Below, one piece after another: positions 12,403 to 62,853 of a DNA stretch of 64,000 nt; within the stretch, counting starts at the first letter, position 1; every line of letters starts with the position of its first letter. The position numbers and the translations under genes were made by a program. Where the stretch lies: positions 118,371-182,370 of the forward strand of contig SLTJ01000032.1 of the NCBI GenBank assembly GCA_004347685.1, in the 5' to 3' direction. Under the pieces are notes generated by a model. The model had not been told where the DNA came from, did not search any database, and saw only the letters and a list, made by a program, of their open reading frames with translations. Origin of the DNA: Clostridia bacterium (lineage in GTDB: Bacteria; Bacillota; DSM-521; Neomoorellales; SLTJ01).

Positions 12403-12593
12403 TCCATCGGCCCCCCCTATTCTTGTCGCCCTAATTATACCTTTCCTGGCCGGAAAATCAAACCCTTTTTAGCATTGGATTTGCCAGATATATTTATACC
12501 CGGCCGCAGGTGGTGAGGGTGAGGTGGCTTCTGTTTGTCACCTGCCTGCATATAATTTAATGAAAGTCACTTACTCCTGGGGTGAGAAGACCT

Positions 12594-13462
12594 ATGGTAG
12601 ATTTCCTGAAACGGCTGGATGAGTTCCGCAGGCAGGAGGAGAGCGAGGCCTGGCAAGGCACCTTTGCCGAGTACCTGGATATGGTGGTGGAAAGGCCACG
12701 GGTCGCCAGGACGGCGCATGCTCGCATTTATGATATGATCGTGGCCGCCGGAGTGGAAGAAAAGGACGGTCAGAGAAGATACGAGTTTTTCTCCCGGGAA
12801 ATCTTTGGGTTGGAAAAGACCCTGCAGCGGCTGGTCGAGGAATATTTTCATTCCGCGGCCCGGCGCCTGGATGTACGCAAGCGCATTCTTCTGTTGATGG
12901 GGCCGGTAAGCGGAGGCAAGTCAACTATCGTGAACATGCTCAAAAGGGGGCTCGAGCGCTATTCCCGTACCGAGGAAGGGGCCATGTACGCCATCGCCGG
13001 CTGCCCCATGCATGAAGACCCCCTACACCTGATACCGCGGGAACTACGTCCGGAGTTCGCCGAGAAATACGGTATTGTCATCGAAGGCAGCCTCTGCCCG
13101 GTATGCAGGTTAATGGTGGAGGAAAAGTACCGTAACCGGGTGGAGCAGGTGCCGGTGAAACGCATCTTCCTTTCTGAGGAAAACCGGGTGGGCATTGGCA
13201 CCTTCAGCCCCTCTGATCCCAAGTCCCAGGACATCGCCGACCTGACAGGCAGCGTGGACTTCTCCACCATTGCCGAATATGGCTCGGAATCTGATCCCCG
13301 CGCCTACCGGTTTGACGGCGAGCTCAACAAGGCCAACCGGGGGCTGATGGAATTCCAAGAAATGCTCAAGTGCGACGAAAAATTTCTCTACAACCTCCTC
13401 AGCCTTTCCCAGGAAGGGAATTTTAAGGCAGGCCGCTTCGCCCTGATTTCGGCGGATGAAAT
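12594..13462 (+). CDS. prkA: PrkA serine protein kinase, 5' segment (gene interrupted by ICE)
   Basis: MVDFLKRLDEFRRQEE..., Walker A LLLMGPVSGGKST, ...EMLKCDEKFLYNLLSLSQEGNFKAGRFALISADE. After 13460 the ORF reads into unrelated element sequence and stops at 13643. Confidence 0.9.
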
Positions 13463-13632
13463 GACTGTTGCTTCATTGTGCCAAAAACCTCATGCTTGTT
13501 TTAGAGGGCTTATCTTCCTGATTATACCACACTTAGGAAGCGGTAAGGGCCATTTTTTGATGCGGGTCTTCCCCAAGGGGCCGGGTCGTGCTCCGTCCCT
13601 TCGTGCCCCCCTGCTCCGGAGAAGCAACAAGC

Positions 13633-13944
13633 AACAGCGGTAAGAACCAGGAGCAGCTCAGGCCATACCTGGTTTTTTGTGTCTGGCCCCCTACCCCTCC
13701 CCTGGGAGGGGTTTTTGGTATGGAAGCGACGCCTCGGCGTCGCCAGTCAAAGCCTGCCGGCCCCGGCCTGATTATACCGGCGCGGGCACCCCGGTCCGGC
13801 AAGGGTAAAGGCCGTGAGCATATCCTCCCTGCGGTCCGGTATCCCTCCCGGCCCCTCCCTTACGGTCGGCCCTTGCCGGCCCGCCCGCGCAAGGCCTTGC
13901 TCCCAAGGCCGGCAGGCCAAGTTCAAGAGAGGGGGAGCAAGCCA
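13633..13944 (+). repeat. Multi-hairpin module, copy A (paralog of 35879-36196)
   Basis: About 310 nt. The core is near-identical to the region upstream of radC. Contains terminator-like AACCAGG..CCTGGTT+T-run, CCCTCC/GGAGGG and GCGACGCC/GGCGTCGC hairpins, a TGaTTATAC box and a long stem. Confidence 0.8.
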
Positions 13945-14181
13945 ATGGCGCAAAGGGTACTCAATGACCACCAGTTGGCGGTGAACCGCCGGGAGGGAGC
14001 AAAAGGGGGAGGAAGCGGCGTAATGGTTCTCCAGGGCAGGCATGGAAAGATCATTATCGACGAGCCGGTGATCAAACAGCCAACGAGGGAGGACATTGAG
14101 GGTGTCTACAGGGTGCTGGTGGAGTGCTTGTTGAACCAGCACAGGAGGGAACAGATGGCGCAAGAAGTAAAGGTGAACTAG
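13945..14181 (+). CDS. Small hypothetical protein (paralog of 62632-62853)
   Basis: GAGGGGGAG RBS + ATG. The core LQGRHGKIIIDEPVIKQPTREDIEGVYRVLVECL is near-identical to the right-end ORF. Confidence 0.55.
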   Translation: MAQRVLNDHQLAVNRREGAKGGGSGVMVLQGRHGKIIIDEPVIKQPTREDIEGVYRVLVECLLNQHRREQMAQEVKVN

Positions 14182-35686: not shown

Positions 35687-35735
35687 CGGCTTTCAGTTAG
35701 GCGTTGCTACCTCATGTTGAATACCGGAAACGGTG

Positions 35736-35769
35736 AAAACCAGTCGTAGGCAGCTACCACTGGTTTTTT
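35736..35769 (+). terminator. Rho-independent terminator
   Basis: AAAACCAGTCGTAGG-CAG-CTACCACTGGTTTTTT. Confidence 0.6.
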
Positions 35770-35878
35770 GATTAAAAGGGTGGTGGCAGCCCGTAGGGTC
35801 CCTCGTTCCCTACCGGCTGTCACCGGATCGGGCACCGTGCGGCGCAGGCAAAGCCCTGCCCCGCACCGTGCCAGCGTT

Positions 35879-36196
35879 AACAGCGGTGCGAACCAGGAGC
35901 GCCAGGAGCGCACCTGGTTCTTTTTCAGAAAGCCCCCTCCCCCGCCCCTCCCCGGGGAGGGCTGGGAAACGGAAGCGACGCCGGCGGGCGTCGCCAGTCA
36001 AAGCCTGCCGGCCCGGCCTGATTATACCGGCGCGGGCACCCCGGTCCGGCCAGGGTAAAGGCCGTGAGCATATCCTCCCTGCGGTCCGGTATCCCTCCCG
36101 GCCCCTCCCTTACGGTCGGCCCTGGCCGGCCCGCCCGCGCCAGGGCCTTGCTTCCAAGGCCGGCAGGCCAAGTTCAAAAGGGAGGGGGAGCGGGCC
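35879..36196 (+). repeat. Multi-hairpin module, copy B (upstream of radC)
   Basis: Paralog of 13633-13944. It differs from copy A by paired (compensatory) substitutions in a long stem (see findings). Confidence 0.8.
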
Positions 36197-36685
36197 ATGG
36201 TGCAAGGGACACTGTGGGGCGGGGACGAGACGGTGGAGGAAAGGAGGAAGCGGGTGCAGGTGGTCAGGGTGGAGATGGTCAAGGAGCGCACGGCCGCCTT
36301 CGTCACCAACCGGGTGCACAACTCGCGGGACGCGGCCGCCATCCTGGCCGACTTCCTGGCCGGGGCGGACCGGGAGCACCTGGTGGTGCTCTGCCTGGAC
36401 AGCAAAAACAAGGTGAACGCCCTCAACGTGGCGGCGGTGGGGGTGCTGAACATGGCGCCGGTGCATCCCCGCGAGGTGTTCAAGCCGGCCATCCTGGCCA
36501 ACGCGGCGGCCATCATCGTCGGCCACAACCACCCCAGCGGCGATCCCGCGCCCAGCCGGGAGGACGTGGAGATGGCCCGGCGCCTGGTGGAGGCCGGGCG
36601 GCTGTTGGGGATCGAGGTGCTGGACAGCCTGGTCCTCGGGGACAACGGCACGTTTGTCAGCTTCAAGGAGCAGGGGCTGCTTTAG
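36197..36685 (+). CDS. radC: RadC-like JAB-domain protein
   Basis: HNHPSGDPAPSREDVEMARRL JAMM motif. 162 aa. Confidence 0.85.
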   Translation: MVQGTLWGGDETVEERRKRVQVVRVEMVKERTAAFVTNRVHNSRDAAAILADFLAGADREHLVVLCLDSKNKVNALNVAAVGVLNMAPVHPREVFKPAILANAAAIIVGHNHPSGDPAPSREDVEMARRLVEAGRLLGIEVLDSLVLGDNGTFVSFKEQGLL

Positions 36686-37122: not shown

Positions 37123-38490
37123 GTGCCGCTGGTGTTATTGTTTTTCCTGTCCCTGGTGGCCTACTGGTTACTCCTGCGCTGGCTTACCCGGCGGCGGGTG
37201 CTCACCCTGCCCCGCGCCCTGGCGACCGCCGCCATTCTGGCCTTGGCCCTACTGGACTTCTTTCTCACCGCGCCCCTCTTCCTTCTGCCCAAGACCGTCT
37301 GGCCGCCGCTGGCGCCGGCGATGACCTGGCCGGAGGTGGTGGCCTACCTGGCTTCCCCGGCCCCGGGCGGGGGCAACCAGTGGTGGCAGCTTACCCTGGA
37401 CCTTTTCCGCACCCGGCCGCCGGGCTTCTGGCTGGCGCAGGTACCTTTTCTCCTGGCGGCTTTCCCCCTGGTCCGGTGGGCGTGGCGGGCCGGCTGGCCG
37501 GCTGGCGAGCCCCGTGCCGCCCGCACGGCCACCCACGGCAGCAGCCGCTGGCGCGGCCGGGCCGAACTGAAGACCACCCTGCGGGCCGTAAACTGCGGCC
37601 GGCCGCAGGAAAGCGGCGTGGTGGTGGGAGGGGCGGGGAACAGGGCCTGGCTCACCCGGCCGGAGGTGGGCAACCCCCACGTCCTCCTCATCGGGGCCAC
37701 CCGGAGCGGCAAGAGCCGGCGGGTCATCCTGCCCACCGTCTGGGTGCTGGGCCGGGCTGGAGAGTCCATGATCCTCACCGACCCCAAGGGAGAACTCTAC
37801 GCCCACGCCGCCGGCTGGCTGCAAAGTCAGGGCTACCAGGTGGTGCTCCTGGATCTCCTCGCCCCGGGCCGGGGCAACCGCTGGAACCCCCTCGCCGCCG
37901 TAGCCCAGGCCTGGACCGCCGGCGAGGGCGAGGAGGCGGCGCGCCTGGCCTGGGAGATCGGCCACATCCTGGCCTATAGCGAGGGGCCGGGCACGGACCC
38001 CATCTGGCCCCAGGCAGAGGAATCCCTTATCGCCGCCCTCTGCCTGGCGGTGGCCGTGGAGGCCCCGCCGGAGGCGCGGCACATGGCTACAGCCTTTCGC
38101 CTGCTCACGGAACTGGGCCACGGGGGCGGGGAAGCCCTGGACGCTTGGTTCGCGGGGCTACCGCCGGACCACCCGGCGCGGCTGGCCTACGGCACGGCGG
38201 CTTTAAGCGAGAGCCGCACCCGCTCCAGCATCTACACCGGCACGGCGGCCCACTTGAGGCTCTGGGGGGACCCCGGGGTGGCCTGGCTGGGCGCCGCCTC
38301 CGACCACGACCCGGCCGCAGCGGGGTTAAAGCCCACGGCCGTCTTCCTCCTGATGCCGGACGAAGCCGGGGCGAGAAGGCCCATCGCCAGCCTCTACGTC
38401 AACCAGGCTTACGGCGCCCTGGCCCGGGTGGCCAGGGCCAACGGCGGAAAACTTCCCGTGCCGGTCTGGTTCCTTTTGGACGAGTTCGGC
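37123..38490 (+). CDS. Type IV coupling protein (VirD4/TraG family), exon 1
   Basis: Two N-terminal TM helices, Walker A IGATRSGKSRRVILP, ends ...VWFLLDEFG (Walker B) exactly at the intron 5' GTGCG. GGAAAGGAGG RBS before the GTG at 37123. Confidence 0.85.
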
Positions 38491-41007
38491 GTGCGCCCGC
38501 AAGCGTGCTGAAAAGCATCGCGTGGGTCTTTCTGAAATCTGCCTTTGGCAAGGCAGTGGGCTCGATATGGAATTGCCCATCATCACCCGGCTTATCCGAA
38601 AGGGAAACCAGACGGGGAGTGCAGCATGCCGGGAAAGGCGCAAGTCAGCCAACCACCAGGCTGCGACTGAGCGTCGAGATGAAAAGTCCTGTATGAGGAT
38701 AAAGGCTTGATTGCCTGAACGATAGCCAGAGGGGTTTTATCGTCAACCACGGCGGAAAGATGGTTACAAACGCCGTGTGGCAGTGGGGTTGCGTACAGTT
38801 GCCTAAGTGCGCATACCACCATATCCCCTGCCTCCCAGCCGCAATAAGCGGAAAATGGCGAAAGTCGTATCCGACAACAGGACGCGCCGCGTTCAGACTG
38901 ACCTAAACGGGGATGACCTAAACCGGAGTGCTTGCATCCGCAAGCTATGGAAATTGTTCCCGAAAATCCGGTATGGTCACGGAGCCCTCGTAGTAGTCCG
39001 AGGTGGGGAAAGCCCGCCACATGGCGAAGGAGGGCAGTTTACTCTCCACTACAACGAAGGAAAGGTGCGTGAGGCATCATGAGAAGTCCCCAAGTTGTAC
39101 TGGAAAATCTACAGAAGCAGTCCTTGAAAAAGGACTACCGGTTCGAGCGTTTGTACCGGAATCTCTACAACCCTGACTTTTACCTGCTGGCATACCAAAA
39201 CCTGTACGCCAACAAAGGAGCCATGACCCCCGGCGTGGACGGACTAACGCTGGACGGCGTGGGTATGAAGCGCATCGAATCCCTGATTCAATCGCTCCAA
39301 GACCACAGCTACCAGCCACAACCGGCCCGCAGGCGGTACATCCCCAAGAAAAGCGGGAAAGGCCAGCGGCCACTGGGGATTCCATCGGCAAACGACAAAC
39401 TGGTGCAAGAAGTCGTGCGCATGCTGCTGGAAAGTATCTACGAGCCGACTTTCTCGAAATTCTCCCACGGGTTCAGGCCGAACAGGAGCTGTCACACGGC
39501 ACTCGCCCAGGTGCAGAACAACTTCACGGGAGTTAAATGGTTTGTGGAGGGCGACATTAAAGCCTATTTTGATACCATCGACCACCACACGCTTGTGGGC
39601 ATCCTGCGCAGGCGCATCAAGGACGAATCCTTGATCGCCTTGATCTGGAAGTTCCTCAAAGCGGGATACATGGAGGACTGGCAATACAACGCAACCTATA
39701 GCGGCACGCCGCAGGGTTCGGGAATCAGTCCCCTCCTCGCCAACCTCTACCTCCATGAGTTGGACATGTACATGGAAGAGTACAAAAAGCAGTTCGACAA
39801 GGGCGACGAGCGCGCAGTGGGTAAGGACTATGGGCGCACCCATAGGACCCATCAGTACTGGAAGGAAAAGTACGACGCCCTGTGGCACACCATGACAGAG
39901 GAAGAAAGGAAGGCGGCCCAAAGAGAAATCAAAGCCCTGCGCAAGCAGTTCCAACAATACCCTGCCAAAGACCCCATGGATGAAAACTACCGCAGAATCC
40001 AATACGTGCGGTATGCGGACGATTTTCTGATAGGAGTAATCGGCAGCAGGGCAGACGCGGAGAAAGTTAAGGCCGATATTGGCCGGTTCCTCTCCGAAAA
40101 GCTGAAGCTCGCCATGTCCCAGGAAAAGACGCTGATTACCCACGGACAGGACAAGGCACGTTTCCTGGGATACGACATCTCCATATGCCAGGACACGGCC
40201 ACAAAGCGGACATCCAGAGGGCAATCCCGCGTGTACACCTACCGTGTTAAGCTGTTCGTCCCCAAAGAAAAGTGGGTCGGAAAGCTGCTGGAATATGGTG
40301 TACTTAAAATCAAGACGGACGAGCACGGCAGGGAAAAGTGGAAACCGCTGCAAAGAGACGACTTCATGGGATTGGAGCCTCGCGAAATCGTATCCATGTA
40401 CAACGCGCAAATCCGGGGCATGTACAACTACTACCGGCTAGCAAATAACGTCTCGGTGCTGAACAAGTTTTACTACGTCATGGAGTACAGCATGTACAAG
40501 ACCTTTGCAGGCAAATTCAGCACCACTGTTGGAAAGGCCAAGACCAAGTACACGCGCGACGGCGTATTTGGCGTGGAATACATGACCAAGGCCGGCCCCC
40601 GGAAGGTCACCTTCTATAAGGGCGGATTCTCTCGTGTAACAGCGCCGCTGGGGGCTGGCGTGGACTGCAAGCCGGAGTACGTGGTCAACCACCAGCCCAA
40701 GGAGCTATTCTTCCGCATAAAGGCCGCCAAATGCGAGCTTTGCGGCAAGGAACACACGCCGGTCAATGTGCATCAGGTAGAGCGCCTGAAAGACCTGTCC
40801 GGCAACCTTCCTTGGGAATGTGTCATGCTGAAAAAGCGCCGAAAGACACTGGTCGTCTGCGAGGAATGCCACCAATCCATTCATTTAACTCTGTAGATTA
40901 CGAGTAAATGGAGAGCCGTATACATCGAGAGGTGTACGTACGGTTCGGGGGCGAGCATCCGGAAACCTGCCGCAGCAATGTGGCAAGGCGCTGGATGCTT
41001 AGCCTAC
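38491..41007 (+). mobile_element. Group II intron (2517 nt) with RT/maturase/HNH ORF
   Basis: 5' GTGCGCC. Domain V GAGCCGTATACATCGAGAGGTGTACGTACGGTTC at 40912-40945. 3' ...GCCTAC. The flanking exons join in frame (LLDEFG|NVGKLPAM). Confidence 0.9.
39079..40896 (+). CDS. Group II intron-encoded reverse transcriptase/maturase with HNH endonuclease domain
   Basis: RT motifs (GTPQGSGISPLLANLYL, RYADDFLIG), X/maturase region, C-terminal CELCG...CEECHQSIH. Confidence 0.95.
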   Translation: MRSPQVVLENLQKQSLKKDYRFERLYRNLYNPDFYLLAYQNLYANKGAMTPGVDGLTLDGVGMKRIESLIQSLQDHSYQPQPARRRYIPKKSGKGQRPLGIPSANDKLVQEVVRMLLESIYEPTFSKFSHGFRPNRSCHTALAQVQNNFTGVKWFVEGDIKAYFDTIDHHTLVGILRRRIKDESLIALIWKFLKAGYMEDWQYNATYSGTPQGSGISPLLANLYLHELDMYMEEYKKQFDKGDERAVGKDYGRTHRTHQYWKEKYDALWHTMTEEERKAAQREIKALRKQFQQYPAKDPMDENYRRIQYVRYADDFLIGVIGSRADAEKVKADIGRFLSEKLKLAMSQEKTLITHGQDKARFLGYDISICQDTATKRTSRGQSRVYTYRVKLFVPKEKWVGKLLEYGVLKIKTDEHGREKWKPLQRDDFMGLEPREIVSMYNAQIRGMYNYYRLANNVSVLNKFYYVMEYSMYKTFAGKFSTTVGKAKTKYTRDGVFGVEYMTKAGPRKVTFYKGGFSRVTAPLGAGVDCKPEYVVNHQPKELFFRIKAAKCELCGKEHTPVNVHQVERLKDLSGNLPWECVMLKKRRKTLVVCEECHQSIHLTL

Positions 41008-51499: not shown

Positions 51500-51640
51500 C
51501 CATGTAATGCAGGATAAGAGAGGCACAACCCAGCGCAGGCAAAGCCTGCGCGTGCTTGATTCATAAGGGTTTCCCCGTGTGCCGAACCGTGTGCCACGGC
51601 CATTCTACCCTGAGCGCGCCACGTGGATACAGAAGTGAAG
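51500..51640 (+). promoter_or_regulatory. Candidate oriT / relaxosome region
   Basis: Inverted repeat GCGCAGGC-AAA-GCCTGCGC (51533-51551) and direct repeat CCGTGTGCC x2 (51575, 51587), just upstream of the RHH + relaxase genes. No nic site identified. Confidence 0.35.
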
Positions 51641-51665: not shown

Positions 51666-52073
51666 ATGAGCGAAACCAGGGTAACCAAGAGACGGGTGGC
51701 GGTGATGGTGGACACGCCGGTTTTCGCCCGGCTGTGGGCCGAGGCCCAGGCCGAGGGAGTATCGGTGGCCGAGGTGGTAAGAAGGATCATTGACGAGCGC
51801 ATCCGGGGCGACTCCGCCCGCCTGGGTGTCCCGGTGGTGGAGGATGCCGTGCGGCGGGTCATGGAGCCCCATGTGGACCGGCTGGCGGGGATGCTGGCCC
51901 ACGCTGGCGTCGCCGCCGGCACTGCGGCCTGGCTGGCCCGGGCGCTGGTGAATCTCCTCACCCAGGTGGACCCCGACGAGGCCTGGGAGCAGGCGGTGGC
52001 CCGGGCCAAAACGGGTTTGCGCCGCAGCCTGAAGGCGGCGGAGGAGGACGAGGATGAAGAAGACCGGGACTAA
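51666..52073 (+). CDS. Ribbon-helix-helix relaxosome accessory protein (candidate)
   Basis: KRRVAVMVDTPVFARLWAEAQAEGVSVAEVVRRIIDE RHH pattern. Overlaps the relaxase start. Confidence 0.55.
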   Translation: MSETRVTKRRVAVMVDTPVFARLWAEAQAEGVSVAEVVRRIIDERIRGDSARLGVPVVEDAVRRVMEPHVDRLAGMLAHAGVAAGTAAWLARALVNLLTQVDPDEAWEQAVARAKTGLRRSLKAAEEDEDEEDRD

Positions 52074-53376
52074 GGCGCCACCCTTTTTGAAAATCAAGCA
52101 CAGCGAGCAGGCCCAAAAGGACGCCGCCCACGTCCGCTACATCGGTTCCCGCCCGGGGGTGGAAAAAGTCCTGGTGCAAGACGATCTGGCTGCCGACGCG
52201 GCGCACATCGAGTACGCCGGGGCGCGGCCCCGCAGCACCGGCCTGTTCGGGCCGGATCCTGAGCATCCGCCCCTTTTGGCCGCGGCTATGAAGGAAGTGG
52301 GCAACCGGTCCGGCGGCCCCTCCTGGCGGCTGGTCTTGAGCCTGCGGGAGGACGACGCCCGGGAGCTGGCGGTTAGCGGCCTGGCCGCCTGGCAGGACCT
52401 GACCAGGCGGTGCATGGCCCAGTTCGGCCAGGCCACGGGGATACGGCCGGAGCACCTGCGCTGGGTGGCCGCCCACCATCCCGAGCCCGGGCACCCCCAC
52501 GTGCACGTCATCGCCTGGCTGGCGGACGGCGCTCCCCGGCGGCGGGGCTTGCTCTCCAGCATGGAGCTGCGGGAAGTGCGCCGGGGAATGACCAGGGAGC
52601 TGTTTGGCCCCCTGCGCGCCCGCCTGGCGGCGGAGCGTACCCTGAACCGTAACACCATGCTGGACACCGTGCGCGAGGATGTGGCCCGGGCGGAGCGCCT
52701 CCTGCGGCGGGTGGAACTGGAGTTGCAGGCCCAGGAGCCGGTGGGCGAGAGGTTGCCGCCCCGCCTGGAAAGGGCGGACCTGGAGCTTCTCGCCCGCCAA
52801 CTGGAAGGCCTGGCGCAAAAGATGCCCGGGCACGGCCAGGCCAAGCTGGCCTACCTGCCGGCGGAGATCAAAGAGGAAGCCAGAGAGGTTGCCCGCTGGC
52901 TCCTGGAAAGGCCCCAGGTGGCCGGGGTGCTGGCCGGCTACGAAAAAGCCACCAGGGAACTGACCAGGCTCTATACCCGCCAGCCGGAGAAGGCTGAAGA
53001 AGCCTGGCGGAAGGCCTACGACGACCTGCGCGACCGGGTGGCCCAGGTGGTAGTCCGGTCGGCGGCGGAGCTGAACCGGACCTCCCGGCGGCCCGCTGCC
53101 ACTCAGGAGCGTAACGTGGAAGAGAGGCCAAAACCGCAGGTGCAGGACAGGGCGGAGCTGCCGGCGGGGGAAGCAGGCCGGACGCGGCAACCCCACTCAA
53201 GTAAGGGCATTGATTTAGCCCGCGTTACCTGGCGTTCCGCCTGGCGCACCCTGGAACGGGAGCGCCTGCGGGCCGAGGCCAGGGCGGAACTGGCCAGCCT
53301 GCGGGAGGTCGAGCGGGCCGAGGAACGGGCGCGGCGGGAGCGCGAGCGCCAGGGCGGGGGATTAGGAAGGTTATGA
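52054..53376 (+). CDS. Relaxase (MobL/MOBP-like)
   Basis: Repeated AHVRYIGSRPGVE / AHIEYAGARPRSTGLF motifs and the His cluster HHPEPGHPHVHV. Long helical C-terminus. Confidence 0.7.
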   Translation: MKKTGTKAPPFLKIKHSEQAQKDAAHVRYIGSRPGVEKVLVQDDLAADAAHIEYAGARPRSTGLFGPDPEHPPLLAAAMKEVGNRSGGPSWRLVLSLREDDARELAVSGLAAWQDLTRRCMAQFGQATGIRPEHLRWVAAHHPEPGHPHVHVIAWLADGAPRRRGLLSSMELREVRRGMTRELFGPLRARLAAERTLNRNTMLDTVREDVARAERLLRRVELELQAQEPVGERLPPRLERADLELLARQLEGLAQKMPGHGQAKLAYLPAEIKEEAREVARWLLERPQVAGVLAGYEKATRELTRLYTRQPEKAEEAWRKAYDDLRDRVAQVVVRSAAELNRTSRRPAATQERNVEERPKPQVQDRAELPAGEAGRTRQPHSSKGIDLARVTWRSAWRTLERERLRAEARAELASLREVERAEERARRERERQGGGLGRL

Positions 53377-55332: not shown

Positions 55333-55430
55333 ATCCTACGCTCAAGGCAAACCTGTCGAAAGGTAGGGACGCAGAGCCACGGGTTTTCGAGCCCCTTTTT
55401 CGGGGTATGATCGCCAGGCTGCTGCAGGAT
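55333..55430 (+). promoter_or_regulatory. c-di-GMP-I (GEMM-I) riboswitch #1
   Basis: ACGCUCAAGGCAAACCUGUCGAAAGGUAGGGACGCAGAGCCACGGGUU... matches the GEMM-I core (GGCAAACC..GAAAG..GGGACGCAAAGCC). P1 is ATCCT/AGGAT. Confidence 0.8.
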
Positions 55431-59679: not shown

Positions 59680-59775
59680 ATCCTACGCTCAAGGCAAACC
59701 TGTCGAAAGGCAGGGACGCAAAGCCATGGGTCTAAAGCCCCTTTTGGGGGTATGATCGCCAGGCTGCCGCAGGAT
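59680..59775 (+). promoter_or_regulatory. c-di-GMP-I (GEMM-I) riboswitch #2
   Basis: ACGCUCAAGGCAAACCUGUCGAAAGGCAGGGACGCAAAGCCAUGGGUCUAAAGCC... is a near-textbook match to the Vc2-type aptamer. Confidence 0.88.
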
Positions 59776-60883: not shown

Positions 60884-60978
60884 CAGCGCTAAGGGTAAAC
60901 TTACCAAAAGGTGAGGACGCAGAGCCATAGGGTCTAAGGTGCTGGTGTGATGGCACTACGACAGCCTGGCCGCCGCTG
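60884..60978 (+). promoter_or_regulatory. c-di-GMP-I (GEMM-I) riboswitch #3
   Basis: CAGCGCUAAGGGUAAACUUACCAAAAGGUGAGGACGCAGAGCCAUAGGGUCUAAGG... P1 is CAGCG/CGCTG. More divergent than #1 and #2. Confidence 0.7.
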
Positions 60979-62631: not shown

Positions 62632-62853
62632 ATGCTCATTTTGCAAGGCAAGAACGGGCGGATCATCATAGACGAGCCGGTCATTAAAGAGCCCACGAGG
62701 GAGGATATTGAGGGCGTCTACAGGGTGCTGGTGGAGTGTTTGATTGCACAGGCACTGAGGGAACAAAATCAGGAGGCCGGTGGGAAAAAGGAGGCGGGGG
62801 AGAGGGATACAGAACCCAGTCAGCGAATTATTTCCACAGTACCATACGGGTAA
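62632..62853 (+). CDS. Small hypothetical protein (paralog of 13945-14181)
   Basis: MLILQGKNGRIIIDEPVIKEPTREDIEGVYRVLVECL... GAGGGGTG RBS. Lies 130 nt from attR. Confidence 0.55.
   Translation: MLILQGKNGRIIIDEPVIKEPTREDIEGVYRVLVECLIAQALREQNQEAGGKKEAGERDTEPSQRIISTVPYG

Follow-up and report, generated by a model that had tools for sequence, protein, structure and literature searches.

The closest described counterparts of the repeat analysed here are the single-stranded-DNA (ssDNA) promoters of the Frpo/ssi type, of which classes 1-3 are described from IncF and IncI plasmids (Masai and Arai 1997; PMC9849209, PMC11541004, PMC12672017). Early expression of anti-defence genes from an incoming single strand has been demonstrated only for these enterobacterial plasmids. 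Three further systems invite comparison: the single-strand origins (ssoA, ssoT, ssoU, ssoW and ICEBs1 sso1; PMC4595007), which are orientation-specific folded ssDNA of Gram-positive mobile elements; the radC motif of Proteobacteria in Rfam, whose conserved, structured and non-coding sequence stands ahead of radC and further DNA-related mobile-element genes; and the ardC leader of the Bacillus plasmid p576, a region with inverted repeats in front of ardC in a conjugative element of a Firmicute (PMC6294495). The locus in question lies in a 64,000-nt stretch of DNA, called the window throughout (contig SLTJ01000032.1 of GCA_004347685.1, positions 118,371-182,370, forward strand). Within this part of a 60% G+C Firmicute chromosome, an integrative and conjugative element (ICE) inserted in prkA carries two copies of a module built around a long branched hairpin, one of them directly upstream of radC. 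With a confidence slightly above even, we read these modules and their relatives as Frpo-like ssDNA promoters of a new architecture, situated on the minus strand.

The match with Frpo/ssi is one of location, size and logic, and the design differs. In both cases a large hairpin of the transferred strand (here putatively the minus strand) stands immediately upstream of early, anti-defence or SSB-type genes (SSB, a protein binding single-stranded DNA) and in the same orientation as these; several copies occur per element, no activity is expected from the duplex, and a use in priming is possible. On the F plasmid, ssb has the same orientation as the tra genes; the transferred strand was found to fold there into a hairpin of 290 nt (z -5.2), with 56 nt separating its base from the ssb start codon, and this is the very geometry proposed for the present module. 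Frpo is described as rebuilding a duplex -35 and -10 in its stem. No such pair is rebuilt here: a junction or bubble holds the -10, which is mostly predicted to be unpaired, and what resembles a -35 is weak, over-spaced and not always present. Unlike Frpo, the module also has a thermophilic Firmicute ICE as host, an upstream terminator of its own and a large invariant apical domain with two side hairpins. A profile of the module, run with nhmmer against the F plasmid's leading region (50-68 kb), gave no match at E up to 10.

The original prediction, made from the letters of the window alone, had proposed that a module of ~310 nt is duplicated at 13633-13944 (copy A) and 35879-36196 (copy B). 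The duplication was borne out: 13633-13956 aligns with 35879-36208 at 85.5% identity over 338 alignment columns (E 6e-100), and no third copy was found in the window. Each of the parts described, a terminator-like hairpin, two GC hairpins, the box GATTATAC and a long stem, was seen in both copies. The GC hairpins have the same stems in A and B (CCCCTCCC/GGGAGGGG and GCGACGCC/GGCGTCGC) and different loops, and they are optional, being restricted to a subset of the relatives. The double change said to preserve pairing in the long stem is exact, A13801:T13874 of copy A becoming C36051:G36124 of copy B, and the 72 nt between these positions show no difference between the copies. The two modules, their terminators and the genes that they precede are the following:

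35879..36196, proposed functional strand minus (transferred): copy B module, upstream of radC
35890..35925, plus strand: intrinsic terminator of copy B, GAACCAGG...CCTGGTTC, then a T run
36197..36685, plus strand: radC, encoding a RadC-like JAB domain (E 8e-40), downstream of copy B
13633..13944, minus strand: copy A module, upstream of a 78-aa open reading frame (ORF), near the ICE left end
13645..13678, plus strand: intrinsic terminator of copy A, AACCAGG...CCTGGTT, then a T run
13945..14181, plus strand: 78-aa ORF downstream of copy A, with no family match

Copy B consists, in this order, of the terminator, the variable GC hairpins, the long branched hairpin, an A-rich spacer and a Shine-Dalgarno sequence. 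A second terminator lies upstream of it, so that radC is preceded by two, and the copy B terminator would insulate the gene from transcription arriving from upstream. At 62632-62853 lies a paralogue of the 78-aa ORF (75.6% identity over 45 aa), with no module upstream and no Pfam, NCBIfam or PHROG match.

The long hairpin is composed of an outer stem P1, the long stem P2, a side hairpin P3 and an apical domain that contains the helix P4:

36003..36012: P1 left arm of copy B, GCCTGCCGGC, partner 36159-36168
36021..36026, minus strand: -10 box of copy B, TATAAT (ATTATA on the plus strand), between P1 and P2, unpaired in the minus-strand DNA fold
36029..36055: P2 left arm of copy B, GGCGCGGGC, a 5-nt loop ACCCC, GG, T, CCGGCCAGGG
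36056..36119: apical domain of copy B, comprising TAAA, P4 (GGCCGTGAG with its partner CTCCCGGCC, 36095-36103), ATA/TAT and a tip that varies
36120..36141: P2 right arm of copy B, CCCTGGCCGG, CC, C, GCCCGCGCC
36144..36161: P3, small branch hairpin of copy B, GGCCTTG/CAAGGCC, on the arm opposite the -10 box
36156..36169, plus strand: invariant AAGGCCGGCAGGCC of copy B, made of the 3' half of P3 and the P1 right arm, with the start codon 27 nt on
13771..13776, minus strand: -10 box of copy A, TATAAT, with 5/6 bases unpaired in the predicted fold
13905..13918, plus strand: invariant AAGGCCGGCAGGCC of copy A, with the start codon 26 nt on

Relatives were gathered by three routes: contigs with RadC homologues, a pattern scan of genomes and a pattern scan of metagenomes. 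About 22 distinct module copies were obtained, in related conjugative elements of the Tad/type IV secretion system kind, where they stand upstream of radC, of ardC (often of both, in tandem units), of a DUF4258 gene or of small ORFs. The apical domain is near-invariant in all of them, with the common core GGGTAAAGGCCGTGAGCATA ... TATCCCTCCCGGCC ... CCCTTG. This core is mounted on three outer scaffolds that have no sequence in common, and the presence of one domain on three different scaffolds suggests a modular, exchangeable part:

Class 1 (including the window copies): outer stem GCCTGCCGGC/GCCGGCAGGC, with the small side hairpin GGCCTTG/CAAGGCC
Class 2: outer stem CTCCTCTGTT/AACAGAGGAG
Class 3: outer stem CCGCCGCCCGACTTC/GAAGCCGGTCGGCGG

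The terminator stem sequence of copy B is kept in most class-1 copies, and class-2 copies stand after a DUF3991-Toprim gene. A contig from a Desulfovirgula sp. metagenome-assembled genome (L009) is syntenic with the window at 93-98% identity and lacks the intron that interrupts the window's coupling-protein gene. It was the single real hit among 11 matches to a pattern of left arm plus box in the genome collection; the other ten gave no blastn match to the module, and the two that were inspected (L014, L015) proved to be chance matches with no surrounding module. Neither a blastn search of 72,556 plasmids with the hairpin nor a pattern scan of viral contigs returned a match, and no module was found upstream of ssb in contig L003.

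Some copies depart from the common form. The one at 3817-4006 of L005 lacks the apex and the right arm, and its box is altered to GATAAT. The Logan contigs L001 and L002 (1-48) break inside the module, as would be expected if the repeat confuses assemblers. In L003 (2535-2640), L025 (8124-8230), L020, L034 and L035, the apical tip holds an insertion of 50-60 nt that forms a hairpin of its own; in L003 and L025, this insertion carries a second minus-strand TAnAAT (TAAAAT, TATAAT) beside a sequence resembling the main box, GATTATACCGGG.

Folding both window copies, as the original prediction had suggested, gave structures far better than those of shuffled sequences, as RNA (z -3.8 and -2.9 for the two copies) and as DNA (copy B: z -4.6, minus strand; z -3.9, plus strand). 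Both hairpins rank among the 7 most structured stretches in a fold scan of 1064 windows of 180 nt. The covariation on which the prediction had rested its case in homologues is present: over 17 class-1 copies, the five helices are paired at 85% on the plus strand and 88% on the minus strand, and 11 base pairs are changed on both sides, a figure reached by 0/500 shuffles, with slid controls attaining a pairing of 32-55% only. The closing pair of P3, for instance, covaries from G:C to A:T in relatives. Part of the earlier structure had to be revised. Although both window copies are able to form the inner helix GGCCGTGAG/CTTACGGTC, it was rejected as the family structure, CTTACGGTC being available only in the window's closest relatives; the pairing found family-wide in the 17 related copies is P4, GGCCGTGAG with CTCCCGGCC, which a G:C to A:T change and a co-ordinated insertion (G/C) support. 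The minus-strand DNA folds reach -34 to -70 kcal/mol, large and stable stem-loops as in Frpo/ssi promoters, and they are more stable than the plus-strand folds in 19/19 copies.

The hairpin is accompanied by a short conserved box that points to the minus strand. On the plus strand it reads ATTnTA, hence TAnAAT on the minus strand, and it is kept in all three scaffolds despite unrelated flanks. Its minus-strand forms (TATAAT in 15 copies, TACAAT in 2, TAAAAT in 2 and TAGAAT in 3) vary at position 3 alone, where the -10 hexamer of sigma-70/sigma-A is least constrained. The same GGTATAAT serves in ordinary promoters of this genome, there in the orientation of the gene, as in TTGATT-16-TATAAT before the GPI gene. 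The box had been taken for an extended -10 of the plus strand, an assignment that we reject: TATAAT on the minus strand fits the consensus much better, and the plus-strand GATTAT agrees at only 3-4/6 positions across classes, lacks a -35 and gives no account of why the final A is conserved. In minus-strand DNA folds, the box is fully or mostly unpaired in ~14/19 copies and partly paired in the others. It occupies the junction of P1, P2 and the side hairpin in class 1, and a bubble of ~9x9 to 11x12 in classes 2 and 3, as judged by manual pairing.

The module is also held at a fixed distance from its gene. Between the end of AAGGCCGGCAGGCC and the start codon lie 24-31 nt in ~20 listed class-1 copies (counted from the downstream ATG in L025), and this interval contains an A-rich spacer and a Shine-Dalgarno sequence. 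No canonical promoter was found around either window copy on either strand by promoter prediction, and our own scan of 15 class-1 modules found none of the sigma-70 type; in particular, there is none between the conserved terminator and the hairpin in these 15 copies. On the minus strand, 19-21 nt separate a -35-like TTGnnn from the -10, a distance too great for duplex DNA; in the window this element sits on the P2 left arm (TGGCCG in copy B, TTGCCG in copy A) and precedes the -10 by 20 nt. Class 2 has a canonical TTGACT-17/18-TATAAT between hairpin and gene, so that the mRNA of that promoter would not contain the hairpin.

Similar boxes occur elsewhere without a module. At the ICE left border (13515-13541), a 6-bp hairpin CTTCCT/AGGAAG exposes in its loop the minus-strand extended -10 TGGTATAAT, an 11-mer identical to the module box, facing out of the ICE towards the prkA stump. 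This extra box (13518-13528) was rejected as a further module: the 6-bp hairpin is all that it has, and the surrounding 170 nt are otherwise unstructured (z +0.8). In L021 (14167-14200), L023 (1136-1170) and the window (26876-26922), TATAAT stands 0-2 nt before a Shine-Dalgarno sequence (TATAATGGAGGTG..ATG; TATAATAAGGAGGG..ATG), and transcripts would there start inside or after the ribosome-binding site.

Several of these observations could also suit a structured RNA of the plus sense (a 5' leader, riboswitch, thermosensor, antitermination element or non-coding RNA), transcribed from upstream and controlling the translation or stability of the radC or ardC mRNA. The hairpin folds well as RNA, with the z values given above, and adjoins the Shine-Dalgarno sequence, with which conserved CCUCC-like stretches of the apical domain could pair; the covariation does not favour either strand, a subset of copies contains a helix requiring G.U pairs, and long structured leaders stand upstream of ardC on plasmid p576 (PMC6294495). 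Yet the 15 class-1 copies have 1-2 terminators immediately upstream of the hairpin and no promoter in between, and the class-2 promoter lies on the far side of the hairpin, which leaves the two RNA options of the original prediction, a leader and a new non-coding RNA class, disfavoured. The conserved box would also go unexplained. In p576, a mapped, repressor-controlled duplex promoter (TTtACt-n14-TGnTATAAT) drives ardC and the repeats act in RNA (PMC6294495); no duplex promoter was found here, and the -10 lies on the opposite strand. Neither window copy matched any of 4227 Rfam models at the gathering score, and the best matches at E up to 10 (11-19 bits, E 0.6-9) belong to unrelated families. 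The suggested link to the proteobacterial radC motif, which has another phylum and another architecture, finds no support there.

The substitution pattern bears on the same question. Among the uncompensated cells of P1 and P2a, between which the box lies, 20 are A.C on the plus strand (G.T on the minus strand) against 3 that are G.T on the plus strand, and the count of further pair types is 22 for the minus strand (reached by 2/500 shuffles) against 18 for the plus strand (reached by 485/500), the latter no better than shuffles. This wobble asymmetry argues against a selected plus-sense RNA fold, though mutation bias could contribute. Taking the evidence on both sides together, we consider the plus-sense RNA unlikely.

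If the modules are instead ssDNA promoters, the strand on which they lie should be the one transferred. The features of the conjugation region that bear on this are the following:

51509..51558, minus strand: candidate origin of transfer (oriT), with an imperfect inverted repeat (51558-51526), a 9-nt spacer and TATCCTG/C (51516-51509)
51666-52073: possible ribbon-helix-helix (RHH) gene (Pfam RHH_1, E 0.03)
52054..53376, plus strand: relaxase gene (NCBIfam MobP3 family, E 4.9e-59; Pfam MobL, E 2.4e-7, weak)

The candidate oriT is intergenic and lies upstream of the possible RHH gene and the relaxase gene, whose product is a MobP3-family HUH enzyme. Nick regions of IncP and Ti plasmids contain ATCCTG/C with an inverted repeat 5' of the nick, a layout shared by the candidate. 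With a nick on the minus strand at this site, that strand would be the one transferred and would also serve as template for radC, ardC and the small ORFs. In the MOBL prototype pLS20, the nick lies on the strand that serves its conjugation genes as template (PMC5313138).

Among the three options offered by the original prediction, the ssDNA promoter or priming signal is the best supported, on the strand opposite to the one folded there and with another inner helix. We propose that each module acts as a self-contained early-expression unit, in which a plus-strand terminator against read-through is followed by an ssDNA promoter; with a terminator at the 5' edge of every module, each gene would depend on its own. 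Upon nicking at the candidate oriT (~51509), the minus strand would enter the recipient, or be displaced in rolling-circle replication, in single-stranded form. The inverted repeat of 170-240 nt would then fold into the long branched hairpin and leave TAnAAT unpaired on the 3' arm at the hairpin base, like the non-template -10 strand in an open promoter complex. Host sigma-A RNA polymerase would bind TAnAAT and take the 5' arm as template. Since the -10 on the 3' arm points to the hairpin base, the enzyme would transcribe out of this base along the transferred strand and produce a plus-sense mRNA beginning in the invariant AAGGCCGGCAGGCC, with predicted starts at ~36158-36162 for copy B and ~13906-13910 for copy A. 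Ahead of the start codon, be it that of radC, ardC or a small ORF, its leader would comprise the A-rich spacer and the Shine-Dalgarno sequence. Synthesis of the complementary strand would abolish the hairpin and stop expression, the duplex being expected to stay silent because the -10 faces away from the gene and the -35-like TTGnnn is over-spaced at 19-21 bp. The same transcripts could prime the synthesis of the complementary strand, as is reported for Frpo of the F plasmid.

A number of points weigh against this proposal. In class 1, P3 occupies the template arm opposite the -10, and it is hard to see how the template would reach the active site. The model gives no role to the apical domain, the most conserved part of the module. 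Besides being weak, the -35-like element is missing from some copies (TGGCCG, TGTCCC, TCTGCA), and in the folded strand its spacing from the -10 amounts to ~14 bp or paired positions plus bulges, not 17. The higher stability of the minus strand was rejected as proof of strand, being mostly compositional: the shuffles of copy B already differ by ~5.7 kcal/mol. In some of the copies, a plus-strand helix with G.T pairs is possible, and L018 shows what looks like one compensation. The wobble asymmetry, too, is weakened as proof of selection and may reflect mutation bias, as unpaired columns of the 17 class-1 copies show the same G->A excess on the plus strand (G->A 2.0 per G column vs C->T 0.72 per C column, ~2.8x); such a bias would itself fit a minus strand that is often single-stranded and undergoes cytosine deamination. 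The 8-nt nick motif occurs 10 times in the window vs 6.2 expected, and only its position and the adjacent hairpin set the candidate oriT apart; with a nick motif that is not rare in itself, the transferred strand is assigned tentatively. Finally, ~15 kb and ~38 kb separate the modules from the predicted nick, so that they do not stand at the very leading end. As for the apical domain, one may speculate on a site for a protein, on a signal for primer hand-off or on a roadblock to replication in the manner of ssp2 of the F plasmid (bioRxiv 10.64898/2026.01.09.698686).

An invariant apical domain that could be a protein recognition site is also what one might expect of a pure single-strand origin, a priming site that recruits RNA polymerase, host primase, PriA or a Toprim protein of the ICE and has no role in mRNA synthesis. 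The rolling-circle and ICEBs1 single-strand origins are orientation-specific folded ssDNA, some of them are read as promoters, and more than one may be present per ICE (PMC4595007). The DUF3991-Toprim gene ahead of class-2 copies would fit such a function. Priming, however, requires neither a Shine-Dalgarno sequence and start codon coupled at a fixed 24-31 nt, as seen in ~20 copies, nor an association with early or anti-defence genes such as ardC and radC; the described origins are uncoupled from ribosome-binding sites and start codons, and make short primers. ssoA origins have the conserved elements RSB and CS-6, and these were not seen in the module. The plasmid collection gave no blastn match that would indicate similarity to rolling-circle sso types. 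We judge priming as the sole function improbable. The two functions overlap, Frpo doing both jobs, and priming may well be a second function of the ssDNA promoter that we favour.

A role in duplex DNA seems more doubtful still. The module could be a weak leftward promoter (TTGnnn-19/21-TAnAAT) for an antisense RNA, a palindrome for protein binding or insulation, or a cruciform. The class-2 minus-strand TTGACG-19-TAAAAT comes near a usable promoter, and two operator-like palindromes GCACCGTGC stand close upstream of copy B. Transcription to the left would be antisense to upstream genes, which vary between loci (a 314-aa ORF, ardC, and genes of coupling-protein (T4CP)-like, CpaB-like and Toprim products), and the position of the element is locked to the downstream gene instead. 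Furthermore, spacers of 19-21 bp are outside the usual range, promoter prediction is negative, and 11 covarying pairs over a stem of ~40 bp are not expected of a protein operator. We therefore regard a duplex-DNA element as very unlikely.

The palindromes belong to a second conserved non-coding segment, at 35722-35872; in L017, L018, L019 and L003, the first module is likewise preceded by this segment. Its parts are a terminator (AAAACCAGTCGTAG..CTACCACTGGTTTTTT), a 17-bp hairpin (GGTGGCAGCCCGTAGGG/CCCTACCGGCTGCCACC) with a T:A to C:G covariation and the two GCACCGTGC palindromes, ~22 nt apart, and the segment ranks at the top of the window in the minus-strand fold scan (z ~-7.8).

The surrounding ICE encodes a large serine recombinase, toxin-antitoxin pairs, a Tad-type pilus, a 1724-aa PKD-repeat surface protein, RadC, DUF6075, an intron-split coupling protein, TrbL, a VirB4-like ATPase and the relaxase, with nearly all of these genes on the plus strand. 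The prkA gene at 12582-13643 is truncated: its PrkA AAA domain extends to profile position 280/358 (~nt 13476), from where the ORF continues into the ICE, and the other part of prkA was not found among the scanned ORFs of the window. The coupling-protein gene is split by a group II intron (38491-41006) with a reverse transcriptase/maturase/HNH ORF at 39079-40896 and an Rfam match to domain V/VI at 40911-41007; L009 and L001 join 38490 to 41007 without it. A full-length OLE RNA at 2132-2731 (511.6 bits) marks an anaerobic, extremophilic Firmicute host. Three cyclic di-GMP-I riboswitch aptamers, one a GGC variant, lie to the right of the conjugation genes (55336-55426, 59684-59772 and 60884-60977).

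In the literature searched, no ssDNA promoter was found described for a Firmicute ICE, and the present family is the first candidate. That it is the first such family in Gram-positive conjugative elements, that its folded strand offers RNA polymerase a ready-made open complex and not a rebuilt duplex promoter, a thermostable hairpin having the single-stranded -10 in a junction or bubble at its foot, and that the apical domain may add a second function, such as a replication roadblock prolonging the single-stranded state or a primer hand-off site, is a wider claim that we hold with a confidence somewhat short of even. If true, a pre-melted -10 can replace a reconstituted duplex promoter, which would broaden genome searches for promoters of this kind. 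The rule for such searches would be a -10 consensus opposite the gene strand, unpaired at the base of a conserved hairpin that ends ~25 nt before a start codon. The module offers a candidate defined at the level of sequence, with ~170 nt, one hexamer and one predicted start site, through which early anti-defence expression from an incoming single strand may extend beyond the enterobacterial plasmids.

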